Shown here in pieces: positions 23,660-48,023 of a stretch of DNA of 64,000 nucleotides (positions are counted from its first letter, which is position 1; each line of letters opens with the position of its first letter). Source of the DNA: Marsupella aquatica (Eukaryota; Plantae; Marchantiophyta); contig OZ316894.1 of the NCBI GenBank assembly GCA_973895155.1, positions 14,213,680 through 14,277,679 on the forward strand, written 5' to 3'. The notes beneath the pieces are model-generated. The model was not told the DNA's origin. It saw only the letters and a list, made by a program, of their open reading frames with translations, and searched no databases. The translations under genes and the position numbers were made by a program.

Positions 23660-24018
23660 CACTAGTAGAAACCGGGGCAATTTAGACCAAACCTTATAGG
23701 ACTAAGGCCACTAAGTCCTTTTTGGCAACCTTAAATGACTCGAAACCATTGCCACGGTTCACATGAACACTACAAAAGACTGTGAGTGCTTTTTGGTTTT
23801 GGATAAGACTATGAAAAGTACCCTTCTTTGTGAATGTATGAACACTCTAGCACATGATGGGTTGTAGGGTTTAGTTGTGGGCTTTAATTTGATAATGGGC
23901 ATATGGGGGGGGGGGGGGCACAATTCATTTGACGACCTCTTTACCAACATCCCGCTAACTTGAACACGGACAAACGGCGTAAATGTTGAAATTCCCTAAT
24001 TTTGAATATACTCCATAG

Positions 24019-26105: not shown

Positions 26106-27819
26106 CCCATGATTCGATAGGGAACTGATTCATGAACTGTGACTACTTTTATGCTCTGCAATGTGAATATGTTGGCATTTGCTGCACTTGGTGTTGATAG
26201 TTTTTGTTAAAACTTCAATTTAAGTACGTGGGAGATAGACGGGAAGTCGGACGGGGAGGTAGAAGTGCACGGGAGACAGACGGGGAGACAGGAGGTAGCG
26301 AGCTATTGATTTGCGCCTTACATGACACCGCCCAACATTCACCTGCTACAAGGACTCATCTTGGTGCGCTTTGAGAATCTCCGTGCTGCAAGGTGAGACT
26401 CTTTCCTAGTCGTGAACTTATATATGCCCTCTCATAGTCTCGTTTAATATTGAGGAATGACTATATGCTTCCGTGACACGGCTCATCTGTCCATTTTTTA
26501 CTGTGCACGGCTCATCTGTCCATTTTTTATAGCATGATTGACGTCAGCTGTGGCTTAGTCCACCTTCTTGTAACAAAGCAGGCGGTGATTGGACCAGATC
26601 GTGTACTTGGAGCTGCCCCTATCGAGCTGAAGGAGCGTCGAGCACTCTAAGGCAAGAGTTTCTCCTGCATTGTTACCTGGTTACAAGGTTACTCTAAGGC
26701 AAGAGTTTCTCCTGCATTGACAACTTTCCCATGCCACCTTCAATCAGTTTTCCTTTGCACCTTGGCTTGATCATTTCAAAAAACCTGTCACATTGAGCAC
26801 GGAATCTATCGCCTAAGTTCAGCCTTTCAGCTTTTTTCCGGACTGTCACATAGCGAGTCGGTCGCGCTACCGGAAGTACTACCACTTTTACTATACGGTT
26901 CATCTCAGTGCCTTTTATGGAATGCTTTCTTGTTCTTCTACTCGGCATGGCATCATCCTGATTGCCCGTCGCTGTGACCAGCAACGGAAAGCGTAGACTC
27001 GCGTTTGGATTCAGAGTCTAATCCAGAGTGTAAGGCTCTGAGCAGACCGTAATAGGAAGCCTGCCTGATTCTCTAGCCGATCCGACAGAGAGCCATCCTT
27101 GCAGAACCTGTTTGAGTGTGTTCCAGTGTTCTAGTGTTCAGCTTTCGAGTGGGTTTTGTTATGATTTGATTTGGTGATTGTTTTGGAGTTGTAGCCGTGG
27201 TCAAACGCATGTCTATTAAAAACAAATTCATGGAGCTCAGGTTGCTGCTGTATATAAACCGCAACAGGATCCAGAACTGCCTGCAGTCCCAGCAAATCAT
27301 ACATGCTACAGTCACAGGATAGGAGTTCAAGAAGTCTTCACAGTTTCTCATTTTTGTAGAATCTGAGATGTTGCTGGCCCAGGAGATGAGTTTCCCTTAA
27401 GAGTCAGGGACGTCAGCAGTGTGGGCCATGTAATACAGTTGAGAATGATGGCAAGTATAATTTGTTAATGGGTCCAATGCCATGTTTGTGAGCTATTGAG
27501 TTGGATAGGAGAAAAAAACCAAAACATTGTCGCAACTGCTTCCAGAACAATCATTCATGGTTAGACTAAGCTCGGCTGAACACCCCTCGCTTGCATGGGG
27601 CGGACACAATGCGGAATAGGCTGTCATGGAGTTGTCGAATGGATCTTCAATTTTCATGATAAATGTCCCCGAGCGTTCGTCCTATGTGTAGATTTTATAG
27701 GGGATGATGGGCGAGGATCATCTTTCCCATCTTCCTGAAGCTTTGTCTGCTTTCTGCCACCTCAGTGGAGGTTCACTTGCACAACACGACAACCAGTGAG
27801 TTTTCTCTTTGCTGCAACC

Positions 27820-28734
27820 TGCAAGGTGAGACTTTCGATCTTTCTGGATGAAAAAACAGGATCCAAATATGATTTATGTACATGTCCATGGAGAACATGG
27901 TTTTATATACATGCTCTTTGTCTCAGGAACTTAGCATCAAATATGTACTATGCACCTTTCATGCTATGTGTATATTGTGACCTGTAGTTGGAACCAATTT
28001 AGTGAGTGGGAGCTGATAAGTGCAGGTTGGTTGCTGTGGGCAAGGCAAGTCGACCTCCTGCTCGCCTTGCTCATCAAAGGATGTGAACAGAGGACATCAC
28101 AACAAAAGCAACATTTATGGTGAGGACCCGCAACGCTGAACATGTGTGGCTTGCATGCAAGGCAAAGATGTTGCGCCTTGAGTATGTCAGACTGGGGATT
28201 CTTCCAGCCCAATCTGCATGGTACTTTGAGTACTCTCACGGTTTGCTTATGGCCATTATTTGCAATTTGCTGCTACTAATATGTCTCCGACTGAGCAGCA
28301 TACACCGGAAGTAAGCAATAGTGGAGGTTTAACTGCACATCAACACATCCAGTGAACTACCTCTCTGCTACTCACTGGAGGGTGAGACTTTCACTCTTTC
28401 TGGATATTGTAGTTTGTAAGCAAGTTGATTAGGAGTGTTTCATGCTATGTTTACATTGTGACCCCTAGCTGGAACCAATGGAATGACACAGTGAGTGGGA
28501 ACTGATAATTTAAGGTTGGTTGCTGTTGGTGAGGCAAGTACAGCTCCTGCTCACCTTGCTGATCGAAGGTGCTTATCAGAGGACGTGAACACACGACACT
28601 CCACAAAAGCAACACTTATGGTGAGGACCCGCAATGCTGAACATGTGCGGCTTGCACGCAAGGCAGAGATGTTGCGCCTTGAGTATGTCAGACTTGGGAT
28701 CCTTCCAGCCCAGTCTACATGGTACTTTGAGTAC
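27820..28734 (+). repeat. Tandem duplication of an intron-exon unit (donor GGTGAGACTTTC, acceptor CATGCTATGT...TAG, MVRTRNAEHV... exon)
   Basis: 27960-28233 and 28440-28734 are near-identical; both encode MVRTRNAEHVxLAxKAxMLRLEYVRLGILPAQSxWYFEY. Confidence 0.85.
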
Positions 28735-29067
28735 CCAGTTGTTGCCAGGAATAACTACAGCCGCCCTGTACCTGCTTCTCCACCCTTCCCAACATCCTTG
28801 GTATTTTTGTCTCTCGTACATGACCCGCCACAAATTAGGGCCCAAGGGTGTGTGCACAGTTGCCAGTATGACTGTCCTGCCTGTAGGGCTTCTGGCCTAG
28901 AGTTGGATGACCGTTCTCTTGGATGTCGGTTTTTTCATAGAGCACAATGTATCATCTGGAACCACTCGCCATCCTGCAGTGTGCCTGGCGATGTCACTTG
29001 TCCTGCCCTCCCAGACCCCACCACCGGTCACTTTGGTGTCTACACATGTTTGGATCACACGCTGTAG
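28618..29067 (+). CDS. CACTA cargo ORF, Cys/His-rich putative zinc-binding protein
   Basis: Open frame 28495-29067 (first ATG 28618; may be joined to upstream exons). C-terminal half reads CVHSCQYDCPAC...CRFFHRAQC...HSPSC...TC...TCLDH. Confidence 0.5.
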   Translation: MVRTRNAEHVRLARKAEMLRLEYVRLGILPAQSTWYFEYPVVARNNYSRPVPASPPFPTSLVFLSLVHDPPQIRAQGCVHSCQYDCPACRASGLELDDRSLGCRFFHRAQCIIWNHSPSCSVPGDVTCPALPDPTTGHFGVYTCLDHTL

Positions 29068-29736
29068 AAGACCACTTGTCACACCGCATGCACAGACCAG
29101 AGACCATTGACCTATAACTTAACACTTTGACTTGAACAGAGAGGATATTTACTTAAGATTTTGAATTATGAGCAATTTTGGGTCCAGGGTTTACGGTCAA
29201 CAGTACATAACTTATCCTATTATGGCTGCACTAAGTACAATATCCTAATTTAAGAGGCTAGCAAGCTCACTTAAAAGTCTCCTTTCAAAGACTGGAATTA
29301 ATGGGCCATGTGATAACCTGGAAAAAGTAATTTATGCCTAACTTATTTGTCTCATTCACTATCATAGCCTATTTAGGATGTATAAATTACAACCCTGATC
29401 ACACTGCTTGATACCAATCCTGTTCAAAAAATGCCTGTTTTACATGTCACGACTGTTATATGTGATTCAAATGCATTAAATCTTGTTACAGATCTCCTTT
29501 GGTGAATCATAGCCACAAAATTGAGGTGTAGGTGGAGCTATTGTATGAGGGGATCAGTTTTTAGTGTGGGCTCAACAAACCAAAAAGTATGTCTACTCTG
29601 CACATGTGTGTGAACATTTCATTGCAGTAGCAATTGCCACTCTAGTCTATATGCTACACTGTACTTTTTGTACACTGCACTAAATTGTATTGTTTGTGCA
29701 CTCTACTAAATTGTACTATCTGTCTTAGGCGTAGGC

Positions 29737-30417
29737 ATGGCACGCCCTAAAATCCGAGCCAAGAAGCGGGGGACAGAGGTGAGCAACACAGGTGTAGTTG
29801 GGCCAGATGGTAGTAACTTCTCCGCAAGTCAGATTTTCCAGAAGGCAGCTCATTGTTGTGCCATTTGTGACGATGGTGGTGGCTTAGCCATATGTGAGGG
29901 CCCTTGCATGAGGCATTTCCACCTCAACCCGAAGTCTGACCTTGCTGCAGAAAACAACTGTCCAGGGGTGGGCCTCCCGTCAGCACACCAGGGAGGCTGG
30001 ATGTGCACTGATTGTTTGGAGAAGCAGGCTAAGTGTGCACAGTGTGGGAAGTTGGGGTCTTATGAGGGCTCTGTTGATGCTCCACCACTTGTTAGGAAAT
30101 GCCCTGACAGATATTGTGTGAGGTTCTTTTGTTTTTCATGTTTGCCCGATCTTGCCACAGCTTGCCCACTTCATAAGTGCAAGGCATGTGGTCAGCACGA
30201 TGAAGATTTCTGGGTGGACATAGTCCACTGTGTTAGGTGTCCCACCATGTGGCACTTTCATTGTTTGAAGGAGCGTCAAGCAGAAGGCTATGCTTGTGAC
30301 AGACACATCTATCATCACTCTGCACATGGTGTTGATCGATGGATCTTCTATTGTCATCGCCATGCCATAGATCCTACTTTGCACACTCCCATGAGAGATC
30401 ACATTTCTTGGCTTTGA
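29737..30417 (+). CDS. CACTA cargo: stand-alone EDM2-type (ENHANCED DOWNY MILDEW 2) PHD-finger cluster, 226 aa
   Basis: Basic N-terminus (RPKIRAKKR), then CAICDDGGGLAICEGPCMRHFH, CTDC...CAQCGKLGS, CPLHKCKAC, CVRCPTMWHFHC and RWIFYCHRHAIDPTLHTPMRDHI. The order and motifs match the PHD region of plant EDM2 as I recall it (CAICDNGG..CCEG.C.RSFH; CPLHKC..C; CRRCP..YH..C; LIYC..HEID..L.TP.RDH). Confidence 0.85.
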   Translation: MARPKIRAKKRGTEVSNTGVVGPDGSNFSASQIFQKAAHCCAICDDGGGLAICEGPCMRHFHLNPKSDLAAENNCPGVGLPSAHQGGWMCTDCLEKQAKCAQCGKLGSYEGSVDAPPLVRKCPDRYCVRFFCFSCLPDLATACPLHKCKACGQHDEDFWVDIVHCVRCPTMWHFHCLKERQAEGYACDRHIYHHSAHGVDRWIFYCHRHAIDPTLHTPMRDHISWL

Positions 30418-31444
30418 ACCTGAATAATGTACATGCATAGTGCACCTGATGTGGATACCTTGGAGATTGCAGACATTCCAATTTTGAGAAGAAGGACCTC
30501 TGTAGGAGAGGATGCTTAGGCAACAAGTACCCTAAGTTCATTACTTGTTCCTGGGTACATGCCTTCAAAAACTCCCCTTAAGCCTTCTAGGAACTTTTTT
30601 AACTCTGCAATCATTTTGATCACGACTTACATGACACTGCTTAAATTAAATCAGGACTTCTCATTATGAGCATATAAGTTACAAGGCAGACAGAGAACTG
30701 ACAGTGGACTTGCGAAGAAGGGCGGAGGGACTTGTGCTCATCCATGAGCGTTTCGACCTTCCAGAAGGAGATTGAGAGGGGCAAAAAGCTTCTCGAGAGG
30801 GGTGGAATCGATACGAGGATGACCCCTGCTTCTGCACGAAGCTTTTTCTGCTCTCTCTCGCCATCGCTACGATCGGGATCCGCTTTAGAGCCGGTTCTGC
30901 TGTTTTAGGGTGGAATACTAGTCTGGATTGCGGGAGCACAATTGTGGAGATCCGGTCATGAGAGTTGGAGCCAGGGGTGGCGGATGAGCCGATGCGTTAG
31001 TCTAGCGGGAGCACCTTTCCCGCTGCCACTTTTGGAGGCGGGGATTAAAAGGTAGACACATTGGAACAGGGGTTCGCATCGATCTGGTGGGGTGCTACAG
31101 TGGGCGACTGAAACAAATGGTGTGGATTACGGCAACGGACCTTGGTGTCTGCAAGCTCGGATTGGACAGCGAGTGGCGGCACTCAGATTCCTAAAAGTGT
31201 TTGGAGCTGACATTGCCAAAGAGGATGGCGGAACATGCAGAGAAGAGTTAAGGCGGCACAAAGTGTGCCTGAGTGGTTCTATTCTGACGGGAGAATTATG
31301 GAATAGTTCGGGAAGGACATCTTGGTTAATGAGATTGGACCCAGTGGACTCGAGAGGAGCCTGGAGCCCTCTTCGATTACAAGGTAAGCACTGCCCCGAA
31401 CATCTTATTAACGCCGTCTGACTGTCATTGCATACATTAATTTA

Positions 31445-33610
31445 ATGTCGGGCGAAGGTGAAAAGGGATTGGACTACTACGGGCGCTCAGAAACCACATC
31501 TCGTGGAAGAAGCGATCGGAATGGACGTCTTTCTGAATCAAGGAACATCCGAGTGGCTACACCAATGGCTGTCCAGACTAGAACGGGGACGCTTCAGGGG
31601 GTGAGAGGGCGCGAGACCAATCTGGTTGGTTTGGCCTCTCAGAATAAAGGAAAACTCGGAGAGGAGGGAGTGGGGAGGTGCAACCAATTCTCGGCGCAAG
31701 ATGCGCGGAATGATGGGGACGGACCACGGCGGGAGAGAAAGGGAGGAGGCAATCCTGGCCTACAGGGAGAGAGTAGGGGGGCTCAGCCGGCTCACAACGG
31801 GAGATACAGGACGATCTGATGGACATGGAAGAGGATGAGAATGGCGGCGGCTCAGCTCGGGACAAGGTCCCAGCCTTGGATGGAGAGACACGACGTAGCC
31901 TGAGAGGTGCAGAGCTCAGGGGAGAGGGTCCTGGAATCTGTGGAATCTCAAATGGTACCCGGAATCCTGATACATGGGGCCGCAAAGGAGCTGAAGAGGA
32001 GGAAACATCGGAGGAATGTATCAGAATTCTGAGAGCTGTAGCACACCGCTCTAAGGGTGACCTTGACAAAAAGCTGTTTGCCACAGTTGAATGGAACATG
32101 ACGGAAGCAGCTATGAATGTGAGGCAATTATATAACTGTGCCTTGCTATGCTACTTCACAGACAGAACCCCATTGCTTCCAGCCTTCAGAGACTGGGTAG
32201 AAGACGAAATGACTAGCCAAGGGCGCTGGCCGGTGCTACAAGTCAAGTTTGTGGGGAAAATTTTTTACATGGTAATCTTTGAAGAACCTGATCATCGGGA
32301 TCTGGCACTGAATGGGGCGCCATGGTTTATGGAAAATAGATTTGTATACACCTTCCCATGGGATCCAACCTTTGACATAAAAAATGAGTCTTACACCAAA
32401 TTGCCAGTATGGATTGAGCTACCATTTAGAGCCTTGGAGCTGGAAGGATGCAGAAGGAAAATTGCAAGCGCGCTTGGCACCCTACTATACTACATTCAAG
32501 GAGACCAATTCAGTTCTTACCCACATGACCGTGCGTGCATACTATGGGACACTGACAGGGAGATACCGGCAAGTGTTCGAGTGAAAATTCAGAAGGATAT
32601 AGTAATTTGGCAACCGGTGACCTTCCGCAATATTCCTTACCACTGCTACAAATGCCATAAGAAAGGGCATCTAGCCCGCAGCTGTCGAGAAGGAGATGAA
32701 GGGCAGAGGCCGACGAGTGTGCTGGAAATACCTGATGAAAAAGACGACGAACGACACTCGGAGGCTGACCCAGAAGAGATACAAAAGGCCCAAGAGAATG
32801 CTATGGTCCGGGTTAAATTCAGGGAGAACCAAGAGCGGCAGGCGAACACGATCTGGAAAAACTCAGTTGAGGAGGAAATTGCCCATGTGGAGCTGATCAT
32901 TGCGACAGATGTTAGAGAACCGGACAAAGGAACTCCAACTAACCCACAACGGCCGAATGTGGGTGCTATTGGGATGGAATTGCTGGAGCCCACTCGTGGA
33001 CCCTTGGACGCCATGGTGAGATGGGAACCGACTAGGACTAAGGGGAATTCGCGAGACTTCCCACCTGGGAGTGGACTGGCCCGGGATCCTGGAGGTAACA
33101 CAGACCGCAGAGGCTCTGTTCTAAATGCCAGTGCACCAAGCTTTGGGCCGGAATTCAGCACGAAGGCCAGAACAGACACACTCGGGCTTCCAGGATCGCT
33201 CTTAGAGGTAGAAGCCGAAGGGAATTTCTCGTACCATGGGGACACCGATGCAGAGATGTCAGAATATGAAGCTTACATATCGAATAGCAAACTCAAAGCA
33301 CGAACCAGGAAACAAGAATTGAGAACCCCCCCCAACTGAAGATAAAGATAAGCCGAAGGGTGAAGCAAAAAAACAACGTTCGCTGTACTTCTCATGAGGA
33401 TCCATGTCTGATGCAGGTGCGGGCGAAAGCTCAACAAGGACAAACAGATTGCTCAGCCCTGAAACGAGGAGTCCGAGAAGTGAACAAAGAGGCGCAGCAC
33501 AAACTAAGATGAGAGACGACTACTCCCTGATAGGGGGACTGACTGAGCAGCAAACGGGGAGCGGCTCTCAGGGCTGGATGCTATCCCCTGGAGGACGGAA
33601 TCGTATCTAG
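31445..33610 (+). pseudogene. LINE-B ORF1 (DUF4283-type domain plus zinc knuckle); main open segment 31819-33339
   Basis: APWFMENRFVYTFPWDPTF...LPVWIELP...CYKCHKKGHLARSC. TGA at 33337-33339 falls where LINE-A continues (RTPPTERSEK), and there is a probable frameshift near 31.8 kb. Confidence 0.85.
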
Positions 33611-33670
33611 GGTGACGGTGTGCTGACCAAGTGCACCACTCGACTTGGGGAGCAGCGGGGGGGGGAGGGG

Positions 33671-36600
33671 ATGGAGAACATAATGCGGATTGCCACATGG
33701 AACGTCTGTGGGCTGTGTGAGACAAACCGCAAACATGTCGTCAAAAACTGGGTACAGGCACTGCGATTTCCGCTGGGATGCCTAGCTCTACAAGAAGTGA
33801 AGACGGATCAATTCTGTTTGGACATGGCTCTGAGAACAATTCTCTCAAACTATCAACACTTCTCATCGGCACCAGAGGAAGGCAGGGGAGGAACGGCACT
33901 TCTGGTCCACCCGTCTTTGAAGGTGGTAGCATCAGGCAAACTGGACCTTGGCAGAGCTGTGTGGATAATCATTGAGAACGAAGGAGGCAATTATGGAGTG
34001 GCATCTATCTATGCACCAAACTCGGCTGACTTAAGGGCTTTGCTATGGAACGAGCTTAAGGATGAGCTTCCGCAGGTAAACTGGATCATCTGTGGCGACT
34101 TCAACATGACAGAAAGAAGAGCGGACTCAACCGGGAGATCACCTCTGATCGGCGGAAGAGAAGCGGAATTCTGGCGCTTCTTAAAAACGCGCTTTGACCT
34201 GGTAGATGCGTGGGAGATCACCGGGGGCGCTACGGGTGCCCAATTCACATGGAGAAGGATGAGAAGGGGATTAATGGTACAATCCCGATTAGATAGATTC
34301 TACATTAGCGAGAAGGGATGGTGGTTAGAGGAGAGAGTAGAGCTGGTGCATGAAGGAGGATCAGCGTTATCAGACCATGACCCGGTGATACTGAAAGGGA
34401 GGTTCAGAGATGCAGGTCAGAAGGTGGAGCGAGGTAAGGTGAGACTATTCATGGCCAATCCAGCGCTTCTAAGCAACAAGGAGGACCTGACGCTTCTAGA
34501 AGGAGCCTAGAGGGAAGGAAGGAGGGAATTTGCAAACCCTGTGCTGCGATTTTCAAAAGCGTGCTCCAATTTTAGGCAAAAATACATGGAGTTACAAGCA
34601 AGACCAAGGCTGGCAGAGGTTGAGATGGAGTTTCTTAGAGCGAGAATGAGAGCACTGAAAGCATCCATTCTGGAGGAACACACAGAGGATGAAATCAAGG
34701 AATACACGGAAACGGAAGACACACTGCATGCAACCGAGTTGGAAGTGGCTAATAAGGGACGGAGACTTGCAAGGATTAAATGGCTGGGAGAAGGAGACGA
34801 ATCAACAAAGTTCTTCTATGCGATAGTAAAGGCTAAACGCGCCCGAGAAACCATGAACCTGATTCTCAAAGAGGATGGGACGGAGATAACAGAGGCGGCA
34901 AGCATTGTGCTTGAAGTGGAGAAAATGTGTCAAGCACTTTATGCAGCGCAGGAACCCTCACAAAGGGAGACACAAGAACGACGGCAAGAGAGGAGACGTC
35001 TACTGCAACACACAAAATTTGCGCTTACAGCGGCAGAGAGAATGAAATTGGAAGCTCTCCCGACAACTAAAGAGGTGAAGGAAGTGCTTTGGATGCTACC
35101 AGGAGACAAATCGCCTGGCCCAGACGGCTTAATGGCAGAAGTACTGCGCGCATGCTGGGAGTTTCTGGGACAGGACTTGGTGGAAATGATACAAGAATTC
35201 TGGATGACAGGAGAGATTGATAGTGCGTTAAAAGAAGGGATAATAAAGCTCATTTCGAAGAAGCCTGATAAGAGATCACTGAAGGACTGGCGTCCCCTTA
35301 CAATGTTGAACACAACGTACAAAGTCATTGCTAAGATCCTGGCATTGCGGTTACAAGAAATCATGAACAAGATAATCAGCCCCCAACAGATCGGATTTAT
35401 ACAGGGGCGCCACATTCTGGAAAACATCTCACTGGCCTGGCTCGCATGTGACTGGATACAGCACAAGAAGACGGAGGCACTTTTCTTGAAGTTGGATTTC
35501 GAAAAGGCCTTTGACAGGGTGAATCACGAATACATATGGGACACAATGCACTTACTGGGAATAAGTGGCCACTTTATCACACTGGTACGGGCTCTGTTGG
35601 TTGGATCTTTCTCGAAGGCAATGGTCAATGGTTTTGCGACGGGTATGATTGAGCTTAAGAGGGGGGTGAGACAGGGCTGCCCCTTGTCGCCCCTACTTTT
35701 TGTCATCTCGACACAACCGCTGATGGACTTCTTAGCTGCGGAGATGGAGGCTGGGAGACTTAGTGGACTGTCAATCACGGACACACTCACAATATGCTAC
35801 AGATTATTCGCAGATGATGTTGGAATGTTCATTCCTGCCACGGAGGAAGCTTTCACCCAGGCACAAACTGCACTTGCATGTTATGAAATGGGTTCTGGAG
35901 CAAAGCTGAACCTACGAAAATCTGTGGTGATTCCCTTGGCAATTGAGGTCATCCTGGATTGGCTGCTGTACTCTGGCTGTCAAGTGAGTGCAATGGGGGA
36001 GGTTCAGAAATATTTGGGCGCTCCCTTGGGGGCCGGGCTGAAGACTGAGCAACTGCACAAATTCTGCCTAGATAAAATCAGCTCACGACTGTCATCCTGG
36101 ACAAATAAGCTCCTCTCTTTCACAGGTCGAACCTTATTGGTCAAACACGTGCTCCAGGCCATCCCAATCTACCATGTGATGCACCTCAAGGCTTCAGCGG
36201 GTCTGGCCAAGAAACTCATTGCCCTCAGTAGAGATTTTCTGTGGGGATATAATCCTGCAGGTGGGAAGAAAATTCCGCTGGTGGCATGGGACAAGATGAC
36301 ACTTCCAAAAATAGAGGGCGGCCTGGGATTCAAGGACTTCAGAAGCCACTCCAATGCATTATTATCACAATGGTTCACTAAGGCCCTAGAGTATCCAGAC
36401 AGGGAATGGTCGAAGATGCTGGCAGCCAACTTATCTTTAATGGGATGGTTGAATTACAAGGTGATCAGAAGAAACAATTACACGTTCAAGGATAGGCTTC
36501 TGCTCTGTACTCCTAGGGCAGGCGGTGGTCTCAGGTATACAAGTGGTCTATGGAAGGCTTGGGAGGAGCTGCGTGCCCATCTGGCTTTTTGTCCTGGGAG

Positions 36601-37597
36601 ATATGGTGCCCCTGGACGCTGGAGCATTAACGATGCAATTAGATGTATGGTAGATTTCAATTCATTGCCAAATGTGGACATTGTAGGAGTCACTGCTATT
36701 TGTGGACGCTTGGGAATGAGATCAATTCAGGACAGGGGCTGGAAAGACCTTCCGCTTAGGGGGCAGGTGCTGCGAGGATTCACGGGGGAGCACAGAGGGC
36801 TGGCTAGAGCGTTCCTAGGGAGAATTTGGGAGTCAACTGCCTGCAGGTGGGACAGGGATCCTCCGGCCAGACAGTGGCGCTGGTCTGACAGGGCAGAACC
36901 TCTCAAGGACTTTCAGATCACCAACTGCAGGGTCTACCAGTTCTTGAGACCCAAGATGAGCCTTCATGTGCTGCTTAATAGGTGCTGGTCCTCACACCGG
37001 TCGGAAATTGAATGGTGCATTGGATGGAAGAAGCTGTGGATTTCTGACCTCTCCTGCAGGGCAAAAACCTTTATCTGGCGGATCCTGGTTGGTGGATTGT
37101 TTACTGGTCAACGGGCCCTCCGTATCCAGGCTGGTACTGGGAATTGCAAGCTTTGCTGTGGGGTCTTGGAGACGATGCAACATTTGTTCATTGAATGTTC
37201 CCATGCCTCATGTTGCTAGAGGATGTGTGACAGGATTTTGACGGAGCTTCGCTTACCCATTGGAGGTGGTCTGCTGGCTATTCTTGATGCATCGACAGGA
37301 CCGGAGCCTATTCACACTGCTAGGATCTTTTGTGTATATCAGACTCTCTGGATGATTTGGCTGGGAAGAAATGAACATATGTTCTCTGACAAGGTGGGAC
37401 GTTCCTTTGACTTGGGCCTGATGCTTGCTGAGACTGCCAATCACATCCATGCGGTTGGGGCTGGTTTACGCTTTGGGCGGCGTCGCTCTCGGTTGAACCG
37501 GGCTCAGGAATGGTTGCGGGGAACGAGGCAAATCTGGCTGAGACGGGGTGGGGACAGGATTCTCTTGGTGCCCTCTAGCGGCGGTGGTGCTGATTGA
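33671..37597 (+). pseudogene. LINE-B ORF2: APE endonuclease, reverse transcriptase and zf-RVT; one frame with two premature TAG stops
   Basis: IATWNVCGL, LQEVK, SIYAPN, GDFN, SRLDRF, SDHDPV; DKSPGPDG, DWRPLTMLN, KLDFEKAFDRV, GVRQGCPLSPLLF, LFADD; CKLC...ETMQHLFIEC. ORFs 33620, 34541 and 37223 are in the same frame, separated by TAG at 34508 and 37217. Confidence 0.93.
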
Positions 37598-38173
37598 GGG
37601 GTCTGCTTTTTGGGGGGCTGCTGTGGGAAGGGCATGGGTGCTCTCTTGATCGGTGTTATTTCCCTTCTTTGAGGGGGGGCTCTCCCTGGGGCTTTGATGC
37701 TCTCTTTTGTGCTTTTGGGCTCTCTTTGTGGCTCGCTAGTGTGCTGTTGCTGTCCCTGTATTAAGGGCTGTTGTTCCCCCTATCCGTGGGGTCTTTCACG
37801 GTATTAAAATTTATAAAAAAAACCATTCCAAGGAAGTTACAAGGCTATTTAATTTGCGAGAATTCCCTTAAAGTGTACCAACATTTTCTATTCTCATTGA
37901 ATGTCTGCCCATTTACAACATCTGTATGTGGCATCACAAAACAATTGCACTTGTCACCTTCAATATTGTCAAGGCACATATTCAAACTATGAGGTGCATG
38001 CTTGCAGGTGTCTAGTACGTTTGTCCCAATATTTCTCCCGTTTGGAATCGGAGCAGAGACTCACCAGACGACTGGACTGGACCAAGTTATAAACGCAGCA
38101 TTTTAAGGGCCCTCCGATTATCAGGTGAACGCATTATCTTCCGGTCTGTAGTGATTAGGTGGCACGTGTGTAC

Positions 38174-39022
38174 ATGGCCTCTAGGAAACGTACAAAGGTT
38201 GACCACCCGCCTCTGTTGGCTGGAATCAAAGCCATTTTGATTCCTGGCCACTATGGGTTCACCCAAGTGAGTTGGCCAATCGTACAAAAACAATTCTCAG
38301 AGTTCCATGGGACTGAAGTCAAGGACATCACTCCACAGACTACACATGTTGTTGCGGGGACATGGCTGGATGTGATGAACAACTGGTCATGGTCCTTCAT
38401 TGATTCTGCCATTACCAACCAAGGTCTAAAAGTAGTTGAAGTCTCTTGGCTGACCGATTCTGTTAAACATAGGTGTGTACAGAGTACTGAGCAATATGAG
38501 TTGTGGGAGAGTGAGGAGGCCACTGCAGAGGCTTTGGCTGAAAAGGAAGCCTATGAAGCAGCGGCAGAGAAACCCAACTTTGCTTTTGTCCAATATGGAC
38601 CTGTTGTCAACATAGGACACCATCCTATGCGTGCAGATGCTATATTGAATGAGCATGGCAAGGAGAGAAATACCATTATGAAGGGGTTCAGTGTGGTATT
38701 TGCAGAAGAAGGAATTGGGGAGACTAAGTGCAGATTGTACAAGTCTATAGTTGTTGAGCTAGGTGGGACAGTGGAGAAGAGTCTAACAGAAACCTCCACT
38801 CATGTTGTAGGTCTGTCATACATGAAAATATGCAGAAAATTCTTTAAGACAATAGTGCGTGATTTTGTCATGAACAACAATCTTTGGGTGCTTTCCCCTG
38901 ATTGGCTTCTGGAATCAGCAGCTAGAGGGAAGCGACAGAATGCTTGGGACTTTGATATTTTTGAGGCCTGGCCCTCCAAGATTCAGCGGAGATGTATGCT
39001 TAGCAAAGGTGGGAGAGAGTGA
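38174..39022 (+). CDS. CACTA cargo: tandem BRCT-domain protein (BRCT resembling that of plant DNA polymerase lambda), ~282 aa
   Basis: NLS-like MASRKRTK. Two repeats carry BRCT hallmarks: LLAGIKAILI...TTHVVA...VVEVSWLTDSVKHRCVQSTEQYEL, and IMKGFSVVFAEEGIG...VELGGTVEKSLTETSTHVVG...VLSPDWLLESAARGKRQNAWDFDI. They are joined by an E/A-rich linker. Confidence 0.82.
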   Translation: MASRKRTKVDHPPLLAGIKAILIPGHYGFTQVSWPIVQKQFSEFHGTEVKDITPQTTHVVAGTWLDVMNNWSWSFIDSAITNQGLKVVEVSWLTDSVKHRCVQSTEQYELWESEEATAEALAEKEAYEAAAEKPNFAFVQYGPVVNIGHHPMRADAILNEHGKERNTIMKGFSVVFAEEGIGETKCRLYKSIVVELGGTVEKSLTETSTHVVGLSYMKICRKFFKTIVRDFVMNNNLWVLSPDWLLESAARGKRQNAWDFDIFEAWPSKIQRRCMLSKGGRE

Positions 39023-39198
39023 GGAGTAGGAGTCCCTCATATTTTTGTATAAATCACAATTTTGTAATAAATGTGATCCTTGAACTAACTCATCTTGTCA
39101 TGGTTGGTCGCAGTTGAAGTGATTGTTGTTTCCTGCTGCGTGGGGTGTGACTGTGAATCTACTTGCTGGGCTCTGTTTGGCTGAAGACTTTGGTGGGT

Positions 39199-39732
39199 AT
39201 GCTGCCTCTTCCAGACCGTCAGGCCCTATGTAGGGTCCTCCTACGGGTTGCATCGTGCATGGCTACTGCTTGGGCTTACTTGTATGGATTGGTAACCAGA
39301 CAGAGTGTAGCTCCATCTGAGATAATGCCTGCAGACCTTGGATGTGTTGTGAATGTTGTGGTGAATGAGGATGCACAGTCGGAAGAGGACATTTACTTTT
39401 CAGCAGATGAGTTAGACAAGCACGATGCTGTAGGTTGTTCCTTGTTGCCTGATTTGGCAGATGATATAGTTCTTACACATGTCTGGCCGAGGGTTCTTGT
39501 GGTGTCTGGCGCACAAGATATCTGCAAATATAGACTAATTAGTACCCAGTGGAGGGACTTGGTAGCAACATGTGCACCATGGAGGGCACTGCTGCCACTG
39601 CTTGTAGGCACGGATCGAAGACCACCATGGCATGAGCAGGGTTTAGACCTTGATGACTTAATGTACATGCCTGAGTACCTCAGGGCTGAGTGGCATCGAC
39701 AACAGGATTGGTATCCATATTTGATGTGGTAG
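39199..39732 (+). CDS. CACTA cargo: small F-box-like protein
   Basis: SLLPDLADDIVLTHVWPRV...ICKYRLISTQWRDLV matches the F-box pattern LP.LP.D/E.....L.RL......R.VS..W..L. It has a hydrophobic N-terminal segment and an acidic linker, and no recognisable substrate-binding repeats. Confidence 0.65.
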   Translation: MLPLPDRQALCRVLLRVASCMATAWAYLYGLVTRQSVAPSEIMPADLGCVVNVVVNEDAQSEEDIYFSADELDKHDAVGCSLLPDLADDIVLTHVWPRVLVVSGAQDICKYRLISTQWRDLVATCAPWRALLPLLVGTDRRPPWHEQGLDLDDLMYMPEYLRAEWHRQQDWYPYLMW

Positions 39733-40058
39733 TAAGATGAGGACATCTCACACCGGTCTCGCACCTGGCACCTGTGTCTATGACTATACATGATTGGACT
39801 CTGATATGGTCATGGATGTACGTGCAGAGGCAGTACATGTGAGGACAGCGGAGGAGTTGACACCCTCAAACATTTAGGAATTTTGTCTCATTCACTTGAG
39901 AATAGGTACATGACTCAGGCACCTATATTTTTTGTTTTTTTGTTTTTTTGGAACGTTACGTATTTTGGCAAGTACAGTCGGGGGTGAAATCCTTAACAGG
40001 AAGTGTATTTTTCACTTGCATAATAAAATGACAGGGTGCTGAGTGCGTGTGTATAGTG

Positions 40059-43000
40059 ATGGCTCCAAGGTTGCCTCTTCACAACCCATTTAGGATTAGG
40101 CATCATGATTCTAAATTGTGGATGCATGAACAAGCCCGGGCCGCCCAAGGTAGGAGTAGGAGGATGAGATGCCCATGCACACAGTGCCAAGGACTCAAGT
40201 CGTTGAGTTTGAACACTGTGCACCTTCACCTGCTGCGGCATGAAAGGCACCCTCGGTGGAGGGTTTGGAATGTACCAGCAGAAGAAGACTCCTCTGATGA
40301 AGAGTGGAGAGCTGACTTTGTGGATTCTAATACAGCTAGGCGTAGAGACTACGTAGAGCAGGACATAGACTGTGCAAAGGATGGTCCTGGGGTCCAACAT
40401 GAGAACATGGATGACCAAGATGGAGATGGAGAGGCAGTCACTGAGGACGATGGGATGGATGTCCCAAGAATGGTTCAAGAGATTTTTGAAGACCTTGATG
40501 CTTTTTACGACACAGTGGAATCAGAAGAGGACAATGAACCGCAGCCACACATTGGCGACGGCCAAGCTGAACCTGACTTTGACATTGGGGAAGGTGCAGC
40601 AGAGAGGGAGTGGGTGTTTGGGGGCCCAAAACACATCAAAGAAGCTTGCATTCCTATCTACGAGGGGTCGAACTGCTCCAAGCTGGGTTTTGTCGTGTTG
40701 TTGTTGAACATCTGTGGCAATCACAATGTTCCCAATATATTTGTGACAGAGTTGTTGACCTTCCTGCGCCGAAATGTGTTACCAGATGGTAATTCAATTC
40801 CAAAAAATATGTACGAGGCTAGGAAATTGATGTCTAACCTTGGGCTGAACTATGTGTCTATTGACGCATGCCCTGATGGGTGTGTTCTCTTTCGCAAAGA
40901 GCATGCAGATAAATTGACATGCCCTCATTGTGGTAAGCACAGGTACAAGAATGTAGGGAAATGTACACACCCTGCCAAGGTTCTTCGTCATTTTCCTCTC
41001 ATTCCTAGACTACAACGTCTGTTTAGATGCCCTGCCATTTCCAAGCTGATGACATGGACTCCTGATAACAAGAGCAGTGATGGCCTGCAGCGTCACATTG
41101 GAGATTCCAACCATTGGAAATTTGTTGATGAGAGGTGGCCACAGTTTGCTGCAGAGAAGCGGAACTTTAGATTTGGTCTATCACTGGATGGAGTAAACCC
41201 ATTTGGAGACAAAAACAACCGTTATTCATGTTGGCCGGTTACGCTGCTAAATTACAACCTTCCCCCATGGATGACTACAAAGAGGTTTTTTGTCATGATG
41301 GTGCTGTTAATCCCTGGACCAGCTTCTGTGACCGAGCAATTCATAGATATCATGTTGGCTCCAGCAGTGGAAGAGTGGAAGACTTTGTGGATAGAAGGGG
41401 TGTTAACCCATGATGTTCTGAAGGGGCTTCTTCGACCCAGCCCCTTTAGATTGCATGCAATTTGTTTGCTGGATATAGCAGATTACCCAGGCCATGGCAT
41501 CATATCTGGACGAGTGACAAAGGGCTATGTGGGGTGCACACCATGTGGGAAAAATGTGACAAGTGAGTGGTCGCATGCCCTGCACAGTATGAAATTTCAG
41601 GGGCATAGAAGGTATCTGCCTGTTGATCATCCTTATAGGCACACACGGTCTCAAATTGCACACTTCAACAACAAAACAGAGCTTCGTGGCCCACCACAGA
41701 GGGTCACCAGAGAGCAAGTCCTGAGGTGGGCAGCCAGGAAGGCTGATTGGGACAAGAGAAGTGCCACTGATCGAGAACCTGAGGATCCAGTGGTGAAACA
41801 CGGTGTGAAAAGACAGACCTTGATGGACTTGGAGTTGGAGTACTGGAGGGTAATGTACTTAGCCTCCAGCCCCTGTATGATTGCAATTTTAGATTGGAGC
41901 AATGGTGGATTGATGTTGGTTACAATCCTCCTATGTGGTTAATTAGTGTTTCTGTTGTTGAATTCTTTGCTTTGTGGAGTGCAGGAATTCGAGCCCAGCA
42001 AACACAATGTGGACGTCATGCACATTGAGAAAAATATTTGTGAGAGCTTGCTGAAGTTCTTGTCGGGTGAGAAAGATACAGGAGCAGTTCGAGCTGATAT
42101 GCAACAGAAGGGGATTCGCCCTCACCTTTGGTTGAAGCCCCATGCAAGCAATCCCAATGTACTTCTCAAGTTCCAAGCTCCCTATGTGTGCACACAGGAT
42201 GAATGGAAGACATTCTTGTATAGATTGAGCTGTCTGAAAGTGCCCTCTGGCTATGCTGGTGCCTTCAAGAAGCATATTACAAAGAATAAACTTGGCAGTA
42301 TGAAAACACATGACTACCATGTGTTGATGCAGCACATTCTGCCCCTATGCCTCAGAGGTCTCATGCAGAAACCAGTCCGTAATGTCATTCTTCGACTGTG
42401 CAATGTATTTTGCCGTATATGTGTGAAAGTGTGGGATCCCCAAGGATTGGAGCAGTTGAAGCAGGATGCTGCTTATGTCCTCTATGACTTGGAGATATAC
42501 TTCCCCCTTGCTTTCTTTGATGTTATGACTCATCTCCTAATCCATGTGGTAGAAGAGCTAGGGCAGTATGGGCCAGTCAGTACCAGATGGATGTACCCTA
42601 TGGAGCGATACATGAAGTTGTTGAAAGGTCATGTGAGAACATACTACAGGCCAGAGGCTTCCATGGCATTGGGGTACATTAAGGATGAGACGTTGGGATT
42701 CCTAACAGAGTACATGGCTGGGTCTGGTGAAGCTATGACAAGAGTTTGGAAATCTGGTGAAGATGGAGTGAGTGGCGAGGTTGTTGAAGGTGTGGGACGT
42801 GCTGTTCAGCTGCCTGTTGTGATTCGAGACAAGGCTCATTCATATGTGCTGGCAAACACAGAGCCTATGCAACCATGGTGGAGGTGAGTGATTGAATTGA
42901 CTTGCCTTTGTTGTGATGCTTCTTGTCTGTTCCAAGGGTGATCTTAGGTTGTCATGTGTTGTTTAGACCTAACTATGCCTGTACCTCATATTGCAGGGAA

Positions 43001-43756
43001 TATGATATGCAAAAAGCTGCACACTCTGGGCAGCAGGATCCCTTCCCACAGTTCGAGCAGTGGATTCGGGTGACAATTCGAGAGCATAGTAGACATCACC
43101 CAGATATGGAGAAGGATTTGTATCTTCTATCTGTGCCACCACGATTGTCTATTCTGACCTACAAACGGATGAGAGCTTATGGAAGTCATTATCGAGTGAG
43201 GGATGAGCAGGGTGACCATTGTGTATCATATGATTGTGGTTTGATTTCTATGTTTGAGCAGAGAACCTCTGAAGAACAGAGGGGGTGGATGAAGATGGGT
43301 TACGTGGGGGAGTTGACCGACATTTGGGTGTTGAATTATGGTAACACAAGTGTCCCAGTGATATTGATGAAGGGATCATGGGTGAAATCAGAGTGGCAAA
43401 GACCAAGGGCCACCATGAAGCGTGATCATGATGGGTTCTTGTTGGCCAATTTTAGGTCCAGAGTACCAAAATGGTCTGAGCCTTTTGTTTTCCCTAGCCA
43501 AGTTGAACAGGCTTTCTTTGCAGATGTGGAGGAGTCACATGGCTGGAGGGTGGTATGCCATAGCCAAGCACGGAACAGGCGGATGGATGGAAGTAAAGTA
43601 GAGTTCAGTTTGGATGACCATGCTGCATTCGAGCATCCTAGTCATGAGACTGTACTTCCAACTCGGGCAGGGACTGACTACATCCCCTTAACATTGAGAG
43701 AGACATATGATGAACCTGGGCAAATGGAATATGATGAGGTTGATGATTTGCAATAG
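40059..43756 (+). CDS. CACTA transposase TnpD/Tnp2 (transposase-associated Zn domain, Transposase_21, DUF4218, DUF4216); 3 exons, ~1149 aa, no stops
   Basis: Exons 40059-41849, 41985-42883, 42997-43756, with GT-AG introns in phase. Motifs CPCTQC...HLHL, IDACPDGCVLF, LRHFPLIPRLQRLF, GLSLDGVNPF, YNLPPW, DYPG, HNVDVMHIEKN, MKTHDYH, FFDVMTHLLIH, RWMYPMER, EPFVFPSQVEQAFF. Confidence 0.93.
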
Positions 43757-43933
43757 GCAACAGCTGGCGATTGGCAAGTATGAGGTTGAGGATGACTACC
43801 TGCACAGAGTCACATAACGGAAATTGCTACCTGGAATGATGTTTAGGATAGTTGGATATGCATGAAATTGATTGATACTTTGAATTTAGTGTGCTGATTC
43901 TCCCTGTTTGGTTGTGGGTGCTGTGCAGAAGCT

Positions 43934-46900
43934 ATGGGGGAAGAGGGTGATGACATGGAGACAGACATGGGGCTTGGAGAGTGGGGTGAAGAGGAAAGAT
44001 TGGATATGGATGGAGACCCAGATGCAGGGGGCTCACAGAAAAATGCACCTGTGCAAGATGCACAGGGCCCTCATCAAGTCCCAGGTAGGTGGGCAGCTAG
44101 AGAGAAATCACATAATCCATACCCTAGAAGGAGCCAGAGTTATTGGCAAGGGACGCCTGATAATTATGATGATGACTATGATGGAGCAGAAGATGGATGG
44201 GATGAATATGAACACCCAGAGCGTGGTAGAGACGGGTACAGAGGGCAATGGAAAGGTGAGGAGGATGATTGGACAAGTAAGTGCCTTGTGCTAGTGATTT
44301 TGTGATGGTAGTAGAGATTTAGCTCAATATGCACTTATCTGATGTGTAGCTAGGGCAAAGAGTTTATCTTACAGGTCCATGAGTGTGGCATGTACCTGTT
44401 GGTATGCAGACTCTGATTGGGACAATCACGAAAACAACAAAGGCCATCCACGTTCAGATAGGAGGCAATCATTCACAGGCGGGAGAAACGCCCCTAATTC
44501 ATCAAGACAAAGCAATAGGACAGGTGGTCCAGAACCATCTATGCGCCAAGGGAGAGGTAACTTGGTCATTGCAGAATTGCTCTGAAGTCCACTGTATATT
44601 TGGCAGCGGGATTTATGATTCATACTTACCTAATGTAAGTGACTGTAAATGGATCCTGTAAATGTGCAAGGACTCCAGGGAGGTTTGGACAATGCAATCC
44701 AGGCCGTGGGGGGAGATCAGGCCATGGAGGGACCCCAGGCCGTGGGGGGACACCAGGCCCTGGAGGGACACCTAGTAGCGCTTCAGGGAGTACCAAGGCA
44801 GGAGACAGTAACAAATTTGGTAAAGTAGAAGTGAATTCCGAAGGTTGGATAACTCCCACATGTGATGGTAAGAACCGTTGGCATTCTGACCTAAGAGGAG
44901 AAGTATTGCGTTGGTTAGATTTGAGCATTACAGAGTTTAGGAGTCAGAACAAAGCTGATTGGGCTACTATCTGCAAGGACATTCTTGAACGGTGGGAGTA
45001 TGTTGGTAATGATGGTAAGGGCCCAGTTGAAGATTGCATATCAGATTATGCAATGAGGATTTTGAAACAAGAGAGGCATAGGTTGAAAAGGATGTGGATA
45101 GACAATGGTTCTAACAGGAGAATGCCACCACCCCCATCATTGGAACTGGATCAATGGACACGGTTAATCAAAGGGTTCATGTCGGAGGCTGGACAGAGCA
45201 AGAGTGAACTGATGTCAAATGCTCGAGGCAAAGTGAAACACCTTTCACAGGCTGGGAGAGGAAGTTATGCTCCAATGAAAGAACAATTGGTAAGGCAGTG
45301 ACATGCCTGATAGTAAGCCTCAAACTTATCATCTTGCTACCATTATTACATTTTCATTGACAATCAACACTTGGTTTCATTCATATGTATGTTGATGTGG
45401 ACTGCAGAAGAAATTGACAGGTGAAGAACCATCAGCACAAGAAGTGAGAGAGGAGTTCATGAAACAAAGGAGTGAGGTGACAAGTGTAACTTCCAAACAG
45501 GTGATTATGTTGTAATTTTGTATGTTCTGTGACTATTTGGCCTTGAGCATCAGAAAGAAATGTAGTAGGAAGTAAGCAACCAGTTCTTGGGGACAGTTAT
45601 CTGAGATATGTAAGCTGTGTTATGACAGGGAACTGTTACAACTCTCACAGAGATGTGTGAACGGTTGAAGTCATTAGAGTGTGGACTCCCTCGAGTGGAA
45701 AGTAAATTGGCTGATCGTTTGGATATTGTGGAGGCATCTGTAGCGAACCTTCTTGCATCAGTGGAATCTAATTTCAAGCTTGTGATTGAAAAATTGGGTG
45801 GTTCCCAACCAAACAATGAGGGCAACATTGTACAAAGTGTGCCCTTGTTAACAAAAAAGGGAATTGGAAAATCTGACACAGGTATGGAAATGACACCGGC
45901 CCATTGTTCATTGTGTCCTATGTTCAAATGTCAGAAGTAAGTTTTCATGAATTGAGTGAATGGTTTGAATGCAGGAAGAGTGGAGGCAGAGAAGGACCCT
46001 GTAATCAGTAAGCAGAAGGGCAAGAAGGTTGCTGAGACAGGTAACCTGCTATGATCCAGTACATTACATTTGAAAAGTGCATGGAGTTTTGTGAAGCTTA
46101 AGCCGGTTGGAGGTAATCTTTTCTGTAAGAACTGGTTGGATGAACTGGGATCTGAAGTGACATCATGATTGATGTATCAGGTGATTCAAAGAGCAATAAT
46201 GAAGAAGATGTGCCCAGTGCCTCAGTGACCATAGCCAAGGAGGTATCAGGTAAGCTGATGCTTTAAATTCCTCTATATGAATGTTGAGCAACAATTCAGT
46301 GGTTAATAGATTCAACCTGAATATTGTGGTGTGTTTATTGATCAACAGAAGCAGACATGGAGCATATGGCAATGGCAAAGAAGGGGAAGAAGGCTGTTCA
46401 TAATGGTAAGGAGATAGTGACAACTTTGTGGTTGGTGACATGTACATTTAGCACATGTGATGAGTGATTGACTTATGTTGGACATGACACTGAATTGTAG
46501 TTGATGCAGAGTTGACAGACTCTCAACCAAGTGGGAGTAGGGTGAAGCGACGTCGAAACTTGGGAGCAACATTGGATGCAAGTAAGATTGTAGATGCTTC
46601 AATTGAAGCAAGTACAATGTTGGCAGATACTGAGATGATGTCGCAGGGAAATCCTACTACACAATCAGAAGTGTCAAATATGGATGCAGATTCTTTGAAG
46701 AAGAGTGTAGCCAATTCTCGATCACCAGCACAAAACACTCGTGCCAAAGTCATGACTCGCAACCAAGGTATGAATAATGTCATGTATAAGCCACCCAGGA
46801 AAGCCAAGAAAAACAGCCAGGGTAAGGTGGAGGTGATAGCCACAGCAGAGCCAGTCCATAATCTTCTATCATGGGAGGATGACTCGCAGGTATGTGTGGG

Positions 46901-47105
46901 TATAGGCATTTTGCGACCGGATCATGCAAAATTCCATGGCAAAGTGGTCCCGGATGACCATGTAGTAGTGTTGTTGACTACAGTGATTGTATCTGATTGT
47001 AATTTGCCATTTCCGAATAGAGACGATGATCCACCTCAGGAAATAATTGCAGATGCAGTAGGATCTCTTGTGCTCTGGCCATCAGAGTGTGTTAGTCTGC
47101 AGTGA
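43934..47105 (+). CDS. CACTA TnpA-like (ORF2) multi-exon gene
   Basis: Probable exons include 43934-44276, 44410-44556, 44671-45289, 45408-45500, 45630-~45881, several short exons, and ~46510-47105. It has an acidic N-terminus, GRGGTP repeats, a Transposase_24-like QWTRLIKGFMSEAGQSKSELMSNARGKVKHLSQAGRGSYA, and a C-terminal FHGKVVPDDHVVV...LPFP...IADAVGSLVLWP typical of En/Spm TnpA-like proteins. Internal exon limits are approximate. Confidence 0.78.
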
Positions 47106-47629
47106 CTGAATGCAAGTGTAGATAGCATCATGTGAATTGTGTCACATTTTGACATTGCCTTGGAAAGATCCAAGAAATATCTGTACCAATTTTTCCATTT
47201 GGTAAAGAGGATGAAGGAGACGTTGTGTGTGACATTGATATTTCTGAATTCTGTATGTATGAAACAAGTGATTGATGTCAAACTATGGCTCTATGGTGAT
47301 TGTCTATAATACTTGAATCTATTTTATCATTTCAGTATTAGTGTGTATGGTATAGAGGAATACTTTGTGACCTTCTTTGTAGTCTGTTTGAATCTGTGAA
47401 TTCATATTAGTGTACATGGTATAGAAGATGGCTTTCTGAAACTATGTATTCTAATGTTAACATGATGAATGGTGAACTTATAGAGTGAGTTCATTCCAAG
47501 TACACAATAAAACATGAATGCAATATATTATTTGTGCACAAGAGTGGGTTCATTCCAAGTAGTATAGTGGGGTCTTCATCACTCATATCCAGTTGACATG
47601 AAAGACTTATACATACCCCACAAAGTATA

Positions 47630-47900
47630 TTTAAAGACTACCCTCCATAACCTTTTTAGTCGTTCCCAACGACTCATCATCGCAGCCCATAAAAGACTGA
47701 AAACGACTCACCAAAGCTACCCACACAAAGACTAAAATAGACTGAAAATCCAGTCTATTAAACGACTTATAAACCAGTTCGATAAAGGACTCAGTTGATT
47801 ATAGTAACAAAACATACGACTCGCAGTCCTATAAAGGACTAGAGTCCTTCCCAGTCGTTTCCAAGTCCTATACGGTATTGAATAGTCGTTTAATGGGGTC
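47630..47900. repeat. Right subterminal repeats of the CACTA (AAAGACT/AACGACT motifs in both orientations)
   Basis: TTAAAGACTA, AGTCGTTCCCAACGACTC, AAAAGACTGAAAACGACTC, AAAGACTAAAATAGACTG, AGTCTATTAAACGACT. Similar GACT motifs lie at 23695-23815. Confidence 0.75.
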
Positions 47901-48023
47901 TAAATACCCCCCGGTTTCTACTAGTGTCTCTGGCTGGTCTCCAAGTGGACGCAATAGGCTCTAAAACCTTCATTTTGGGGGACCAGGGACCCTGCTAATG
48001 GACTGCACAAAATTAGCAGGAAA

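Follow-up and report, generated by a model that had tools for sequence, protein, structure and literature searches.

An intact tandem-BRCT gene inside a CACTA element of Marsupella aquatica, a possible link between transposition and host DNA repair

An intact gene for a protein with two BRCT domains is carried by a CACTA transposon of the En/Spm type in Marsupella aquatica. BRCT domains are modules by which cells put together complexes for DNA repair. The gene was found in a stretch of 64,000 nucleotides (OZ316894.1:14,213,680-14,277,679, forward strand), which is called the window here and within which all positions are numbered. The window is rich in transposons. The gene lies between the matched ends of the CACTA element and is therefore inside this 24.3-kb element, so it is element-borne (Table 1). 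The protein may act as a non-catalytic adaptor that links the transposition machinery, or the break left by excision, to host damage-response or repair proteins. This is the reading we prefer, and it is put forward tentatively.

The element was delimited by its ends. All pairs of CACTA and a downstream TAGTG were compared by script, and a single pair stood out, in which 18 of 18 terminal bases are identical and TCT flanks both ends. This 18-mer terminus has two copies in the window, in inverted orientation, where 0.04 copies are expected, and two matches were obtained in none of 100 shuffled sequences. The short repeats AACGACT and AAGGACT were found in both orientations just inside the 3' end of the element. 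The transposase gene is of the Tnp2/TnpD type and gave Pfam matches to Transposase_21 (E 1.3e-59), DUF4218 (E 1.2e-24), DUF4216 (E 7.5e-6) and Transpos_assoc (E 1.1e-4). Its sole in-frame stop, the TAA at 41940, falls in an intron-like GT..AG stretch (41850-41985). The ATG of the transposase is 1,037 bp downstream of the BRCT gene on the same strand, which agrees with the initial annotation, made from the letters of the sequence, that the two genes are neighbours. As a separate observation, the 5' subterminal region (24019-24508) contains G-rich direct repeats with GGGTTTAGGG units, which correspond to the plant telomere-type heptamer TTTAGGG.

The BRCT gene has the features of a complete gene. 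Its ATG is the first after the upstream stop, in a frame that is open from 38159 to 39022 (287 codons between stops). The candidate TATAAA and AATAAA signals around the open reading frame (ORF) fit an independent transcription unit. The N-terminus is basic (MASRKRTKV), as expected from the nuclear localization-like start that had been noted earlier, and the protein is probably nuclear. The contigs of public runs, which are of unknown library kind, show no GT..AG joint at the gene. A spliced form was also considered, in which the BRCT ORF is joined to the next one, ORF2 (donor near 39008, acceptor near 39335 or 39404), and gains the acidic tail of its relatives. It was rejected as unsupported: when a hidden Markov model of the tail, built from five relatives, was compared with the frames of the window, the frame 39157-39729 was not among the matches listed (E to about 57), and BLASTP found nothing in support of such a splice.

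The 282-residue protein consists of BRCT domains only. Two stretches match Pfam BRCT (PF00533), with E 2.1e-13 and 50.7 bits where the cut-off is 21.3; BRCT_2 was matched with E 2.9e-9, and no other domain, catalytic ones included, was found by Pfam. The motif THVV occurs at residues 57-60 and 209-212, followed in each repeat by a W-L-x-D/E-S motif (WLTDS at 92-96 and WLLES at 244-248). An AlphaFold2 model was built on the 16-sequence family alignment. It has a mean predicted local distance difference test score (pLDDT) of 82 and contains two confident BRCT folds, at about residues 12-110 and 166-267, with most 10-residue blocks above 90 in both domains. The beta-alpha-beta-beta-alpha-beta-alpha order of the BRCT fold was seen in the model and in its superposition on known structures. 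The two domains are joined by a linker of about 60 residues that is partly helical in the model; its Glu/Ala-rich sequence, ESEEATAEALAEKEAYEAAAEK, is modelled as a helix at residues 114-132. Two BRCT folds with these motifs, a helical Glu/Ala linker and no catalytic domain are what the initial annotation had proposed. The two repeats share 24% identity over 71 residues, which indicates that the duplication is old.

The Foldseek search that had been suggested as a check was run with this model against the PDB and gave 166 matches at E <= 0.001. The leading matches are tandem-BRCT proteins in a near tie, namely LIG4 (6.6e-11), BRCA1 (1.7e-10), Rad4/TopBP1, Rtt107 and MCPH1. By VIA-align, repeat 2 superimposes best on the BRCT domain of PARP4 (Z 16.4, root-mean-square deviation (rmsd) 1.3 A, 93 of 93 PARP4 BRCT residues) and on BRCT2 of XRCC1 (Z 15.5, 1.7 A over 95 residues). 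Superpositions of the whole chain gave rmsd values of 16-21 A. An Atlas search with the protein returned generic BRCT clusters only (best score 0.90).

The protein belongs to a small family. When 1.84 billion representatives were searched exhaustively with phmmer, 15 relatives were obtained at E <= 0.001, all of 111-313 residues and nearly all unnamed. The closest one, P0001 (294 residues), has a shared start, a similar length and 61% identity over 270 residues, and full-length relatives retain the two-repeat build at 18-31% identity. Pfam BRCT was matched by 14 of the 16 aligned family members. The conserved columns of the alignment (A1) give a signature of T57, H58, A61, W64, W73, W92 and S96 for repeat 1, and of G198, T209, H210, Y216, C220, W244, S248, E264 and P267 for repeat 2. 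Judged from these sequences, the family is old and conserved. None of the host-type proteins BRCA1, BARD1, LIG4, XRCC1, Pol lambda and TopBP1 was found at E <= 0.001 in the exhaustive search. With 15 relatives only and no host-type repair protein among them, recent capture of a known host gene, the origin that the initial annotation had set against its own view, is unlikely. A search with the A1 profile returned 2 of 4966 candidates, both already among the relatives. Of 1612 candidates none was a fused or longer form, though this is weak evidence. Scans for DNA encoding relatives gave 91 pattern matches with the window protein and 23 with P0020, none of which was confirmed. The gene represents a small BRCT family that is unannotated, has a W-S-W signature and is without known function.

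The likeness to known BRCT proteins was compared class by class. LIG4, the top Foldseek match (9cq3_f, 6.6e-11; 3ii6, 1.9e-9), shares the two folds and the long, partly helical linker of about 60 residues. Its lead over BRCA1 and Rad4 is negligible, the identity is 14-16%, the overall rmsd is about 19-21 A with a different or uncertain domain orientation, and the window protein has no ligase domain. The linker between the two BRCT domains of LIG4 binds XRCC4, and the architecture and the Foldseek rank are compatible with a LIG4-like linker that would clamp XRCC4. The class of BRCA1, MDC1 and MCPH1 shares two consecutive BRCT folds; BRCA1 was the best PDB match of the single sequence, which was not significant (E 0.14), and reached 1.8e-8 with the family profile. 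In contrast to this class, the pocket residues are not kept, and the linker is about 60 residues long, where BRCA1-type linkers have roughly 20-25 residues. PARP4 BRCT and XRCC1 BRCT2, which gave the best rigid superpositions of repeat 2, are single BRCT domains that serve in contacts between proteins, and they are 14-16% identical to it. XRCC1 BRCT2 is the partner of the LIG3 BRCT domain, but a common fold is no proof of a common partner.

The stretch is also present in public runs from the organisms A, B and C, for all three of which only contigs were available. In the near-identical contigs of X1, the word depth was 1767 at 38357-38776 in the BRCT gene and 1772, 1817, 1912, 2011 and 1949 across the transposase gene. 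Over the corresponding stretches, the word depths of X5 were 55 in the BRCT gene and then 43, 62, 59, 41, 75 and 94. Such a flat profile is as expected when most copies hold both genes. No frameshifting indel in the BRCT ORF is listed for X1-X3, and X5 has net in-frame insertions only. The similar depth of the BRCT and transposase genes and the unbroken frame in three organisms indicate that the BRCT gene is part of the repeated unit. These results, together with the inverted CACTA ends and the TCT duplication, bear out the earlier claim that the gene is carried by the transposon, and the decay of the frame that had been named as the contrary outcome was not seen in the X1-X3 contigs. All four runs differ from the window at 38292, 38586 and 38735, so some changes are private to the window copy, among them R40 to Q and S138 to F, and its ORF is still open. 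In the core of the first BRCT domain (38305-38426, THVVAGTW to WSWSF), the contigs of X5 and X10 are 20- to 100-fold deeper than over the rest, and about 17% of positions differ in those of X10. Such deep and divergent cover suggests that more abundant repeat families contain diverged BRCT paralogues.

In the reading we prefer, the protein would enter the nucleus by its basic N-terminus, bind its partners in a phospho-independent manner without a classical phosphoserine pocket, as do BRCT domains from LIG4, XRCC1/LIG3 and X-family polymerases, and form a bridge from the transposition machinery, or from the excision break, to proteins of the host DNA-damage response or of repair. Such an adaptor would benefit the element at excision or at reinsertion. 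Cut-and-paste transposons rely on host repair of their own breaks, and their mode of copy gain is debated. A repair-adaptor function is plausible. Among plants, a conserved BRCT-only protein encoded by an element would be the first candidate for a handle by which a transposon acts on the DNA-damage machinery of its host; to our knowledge, all known CACTA helper proteins bind element DNA or act on chromatin.

Several results weigh against this reading. The S/T-G...K triad for phosphoserine binding is absent from both repeats. When repeat 1 was aligned with BRCA1 by HMMER, Y27-G28 were opposite S1655-G1656, and S72 and S74 were opposite T1700 and K1702, which we take to be the pocket residues of BRCA1. 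At the Lys position of repeat 1 the family columns vary among S, N, R, H and E. In repeat 2, Glu occupies the Ser position, the Gly is family-wide, and the Lys is found only in the subgroup of the window protein. With the triad absent from both repeats, the best-understood BRCT mechanism is unlikely. The predicted template modelling score of the AlphaFold2 model is only 0.50, so the relative placement of the two domains is unsettled. Copy number is poorly measured by contig depth, and the distant relatives are known from their protein sequences. Between the window copy and organism C, 4 synonymous and 12 non-synonymous changes were counted among 16 listed differences (ratio about 0.8), which are part of a list with 90 further ones over the stretch. 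Thus no purifying selection is visible among close copies, where the ratio is near neutral. Dead transposon copies drift neutrally anyway.

Other explanations of the gene have to be weighed with the adaptor. The initial annotation had described the protein as resembling a duplicated BRCT domain of DNA polymerase lambda; in this version, the protein would be such a duplicate and would compete for Ku/XRCC4-LIG4. Repeat 2 can be aligned with the BRCT domain of human Pol lambda by the family profile (2jw5, E 1.4e-7; 9g9l, E 5e-7), but stronger matches were obtained for Rtt107 (4.9e-10), Rad4 (5.5e-9) and BRCA1 (1.8e-8), and those of REV1, TopBP1, LIG4 and PARP4 follow closely. Because other BRCT families score as well or better, the likeness to Pol lambda is generic to BRCT domains. 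The 23 sequences matched by repeat 2 alone, up to E 10, include no Pol lambda chain, and none is present among the best 50 VIA-align entries shown. X-family polymerases have a single N-terminal BRCT domain and a Pol X core, whereas the 287-codon frame encodes BRCT domains only, and the exhaustive search gave no protein of Pol lambda length. With repeats that are only 24% identical as well, the Pol lambda origin was not sustained and is highly improbable. A more specific proposal is that a LIG4-like BRCT decoy or adaptor steers the excision break from end joining to copying from the sister chromatid, by which the donor copy is restored. This is distinctly unlikely on present evidence, but if true, cut-and-paste transposition would give a net gain of copies, and a transposon would encode control over the choice of host repair pathway. 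Alternatively, the gene could be a passenger, an old transduplicated host BRCT gene that is copied along in the manner of Pack-CACTA elements, with no role in transposition and with open frames that reflect youth. Plant CACTA elements pick up pieces of host genes, the PHD-finger and F-box-like ORFs of the same element resemble a collection of host-type modules, and the 4:12 ratio among close copies is near neutral. However, the gene is complete rather than a fragment, with its own start, basic N-terminus, both domains, TATAAA and AATAAA. Its whole-length architecture is preserved across relatives from 61% to about 26% identity, and no host-type BRCT protein appeared among the 15 hits of the exhaustive search. 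We regard the passenger as somewhat unlikely.

The remaining explanations keep the protein in the service of the element without a repair function. As a regulatory subunit, it would bind the transposase or a TnpA-like protein and control the assembly or timing of transposition. BRCT and FHA modules often bind acidic Ser/Asp/Glu clusters, and the transposase's N-terminal region has such clusters (EEDSSDEEW and ESEEDNE), so its acidic Ser-rich patches are a candidate target. Direct interactions between transposase and accessory proteins are described for the PIF/Harbinger, CACTA and MULE superfamilies in the accessible part of PMC12973397. The regulatory role would be akin to such interactions as reported for MuDR, PIF/Harbinger and CACTA. 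The phosphoserine pocket is not conserved, which speaks against such binding, and the explanation is unlikely. The BRCT protein could also form a counter-silencing or chromatin module with the products of the PHD-like and F-box-like ORFs, aimed at silencing factors or chromatin of the host. Adjacent to each other and 5' of the transposase are indeed three interaction modules of host type (PHD, two BRCT domains, F-box-like), and there are precedents in the chromatin-type accessory genes of EnSpm/Plavaka elements and the anti-silencing protein encoded by VANDAL (bioRxiv 10.1101/2025.02.11.637652, in the portion available). Yet the F-box match of ORF2 is below every threshold and its frame is broken by a 43-bp deletion in the copies of two organisms, the PHD matches are under the Pfam cut-offs, and the three ORFs are joined by position alone. 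This module is quite improbable.

The element was compared with known CACTA systems. It shares with maize En/Spm and other plant CACTA elements the CACTA termini, the 3-bp duplication and the Tnp2-type transposase with DUF4218 and DUF4216; the short subterminal repeats and a possible TnpA-like region downstream may be further common features. In contrast to these, it has a self-contained tandem-BRCT gene and the PHD-like and F-box-like ORFs 5' of the transposase; we know of no classical two-product CACTA element, with TnpD and TnpA, that has any of the three. Accessory genes of transposons are rare, according to the available part of bioRxiv 10.1101/2025.02.11.637652, which describes accessory cassettes in giant EnSpm/Plavaka elements (PAG1-3 in red algae, a TET/JBP gene in fungal Plavaka). 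Those elements likewise are large, belong to the same superfamily and hold non-transposase genes in the repeated unit. Their accessory genes, however, encode enzymes or DNA binders (SET/N6-methylase, 2OG oxygenase, ParB-like; same source, same part), whereas here a BRCT protein is found with a plant Tnp2-type transposase.

A BRCT-type domain in a plant CACTA accessory protein has one precedent in the literature found. Among 775 active plant CACTA clusters, RTT107_BRCT_5 is listed for one accessory protein, and two RTT107_BRCT_6 singletons belong to a MULE transposase and to an accessory protein of hAT (PMC12973397, Table S6, as available). The RTT107_BRCT_5 protein was matched by a different Pfam model and is known as a table row alone; the word BRCT is absent from the accessible main text of that paper. 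No mention of BRCT was found in the accessible parts of bioRxiv 10.1101/2025.02.11.637652, PMC13547354 and PMC6431247. By titles and abstract openings, searches for CACTA with BRCT returned only BRCA1, BRIP1 and BACH1 biology or an unrelated protein-purification protocol, and among the papers listed none was found on a transposon-encoded or transposon-captured BRCT protein. A CACTA element with a conserved tandem-BRCT accessory gene is therefore previously undescribed in the literature found.

Table 1. Positions of the CACTA element, the tandem-BRCT gene and the neighbouring features in the window (LINE, long interspersed nuclear element).
Feature	Position	Strand	Basis or remark
Target-site duplication, left copy, TCT, 3 bp	23657..23659		Sequence
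CACTA (En/Spm-type) element, 24,267 bp including the nested LINE	23660..47926	+	CACTA/TAGTG end pair
5' terminal inverted repeat, starts CACTAGTAGAAACCGGGG	23660..23689	+	Pairs with the 3' end
PHD-finger-like ORF, three NSD-like PHD fingers	29710..30417	+	Pfam, below curated cut-offs
Nested LINE, 7.1 kb	30688..37833	+	DUF4283 ORF1, endonuclease, reverse transcriptase, zf-RVT, A-rich tail
Candidate own promoter, TATAAA	38088..38093	+	81-86 bp 5' of the BRCT ATG, read from the sequence
Tandem-BRCT gene	38174..39022	+	282 residues, one open exon
BRCT repeat 1, residues 12-110	38207..38503	+	AlphaFold2 fold, Pfam stretch, conserved alignment columns
Linker helix, Glu/Ala-rich, residues 114-132	38513..38569	+	AlphaFold2; followed by low-confidence residues 135-163
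BRCT repeat 2, residues 166-267	38669..38974	+	Best Pfam stretch 166-248, superposition, conserved columns
Candidate polyadenylation signal, AATAAA	39066..39071	+	44 bp past the BRCT stop codon, read from the sequence
ORF2, 177 residues, weakly F-box-like, gene status uncertain	39199..39732	+	Between the BRCT gene and the transposase
Tnp2/TnpD-type transposase gene, three open segments	40059..43756	+	Pfam
Open frames 3' of the transposase, possible TnpA-like second gene	44639..47105	+	Weak Transposase_24 match
3' terminal inverted repeat	47897..47926	-	Pairs with the CACTAGTAGAAACCGGGG end
Target-site duplication, right copy, TCT	47927..47929		Sequence

The PHD-like ORF, the BRCT gene, ORF2, the transposase and the Transposase_24-type frames are all on the plus strand between the CACTA ends. 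The PHD-like ORF was matched by PF23004 (E 4.6e-5), PF23011 (E 4.1e-4) and PF22908 (E 6e-3), all under their cut-offs, and it lies about 600 bp 5' of the BRCT ATG after the nested LINE is subtracted. It may be another accessory or a captured chromatin-reader module. ORF2 gave a Pfam F-box match of E 0.078-0.098, below the cut-off. In the Atlas search, its 10 best family-bearing hits (best score 0.91) are all of the F-box family or clan, and its single-sequence fold was uninformative (pLDDT 37). The deletion that breaks its frame is at 39363-39405 and was found in the contigs of X2 and X5. Downstream of the transposase, the Transposase_24 match is weak (E 0.028, under the cut-off) and covers residues 171-217 of the ORF at 44639-45301.

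The LINE between the PHD-like ORF and the BRCT gene ends 340 bp 5' of the BRCT ATG. It is flanked by a 12-bp duplication, AAGTTACAAGGC, at 30676-30687 and 37834-37845. The contigs of X1 and X2 diverge from the window at 37834 and continue as 30660-30675, which is the uninterrupted element. This LINE is a later insertion that is private to the window copy. The CACTA element itself is hosted by an older LINE, of which the DUF4283 ORF1 is in the left flank (22130-22870) and the endonuclease (48291-48752), reverse transcriptase (49685-50209) and zf-RVT (50879-51424) are in the right flank (48291-51424). The LINE halves on both flanks and the inner LINE indicate that a LINE holds the CACTA element, which in turn holds another LINE. 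Outside these nested elements, a copia-type polyprotein frame of 1,575 codons, apparently unbroken, was found on the plus strand at 52431-57158, with gag, integrase, RVT_2 and RNase H, and a fragment of a PIF/Harbinger transposase (Plant_tran) is at 19973-20485 on the same strand.

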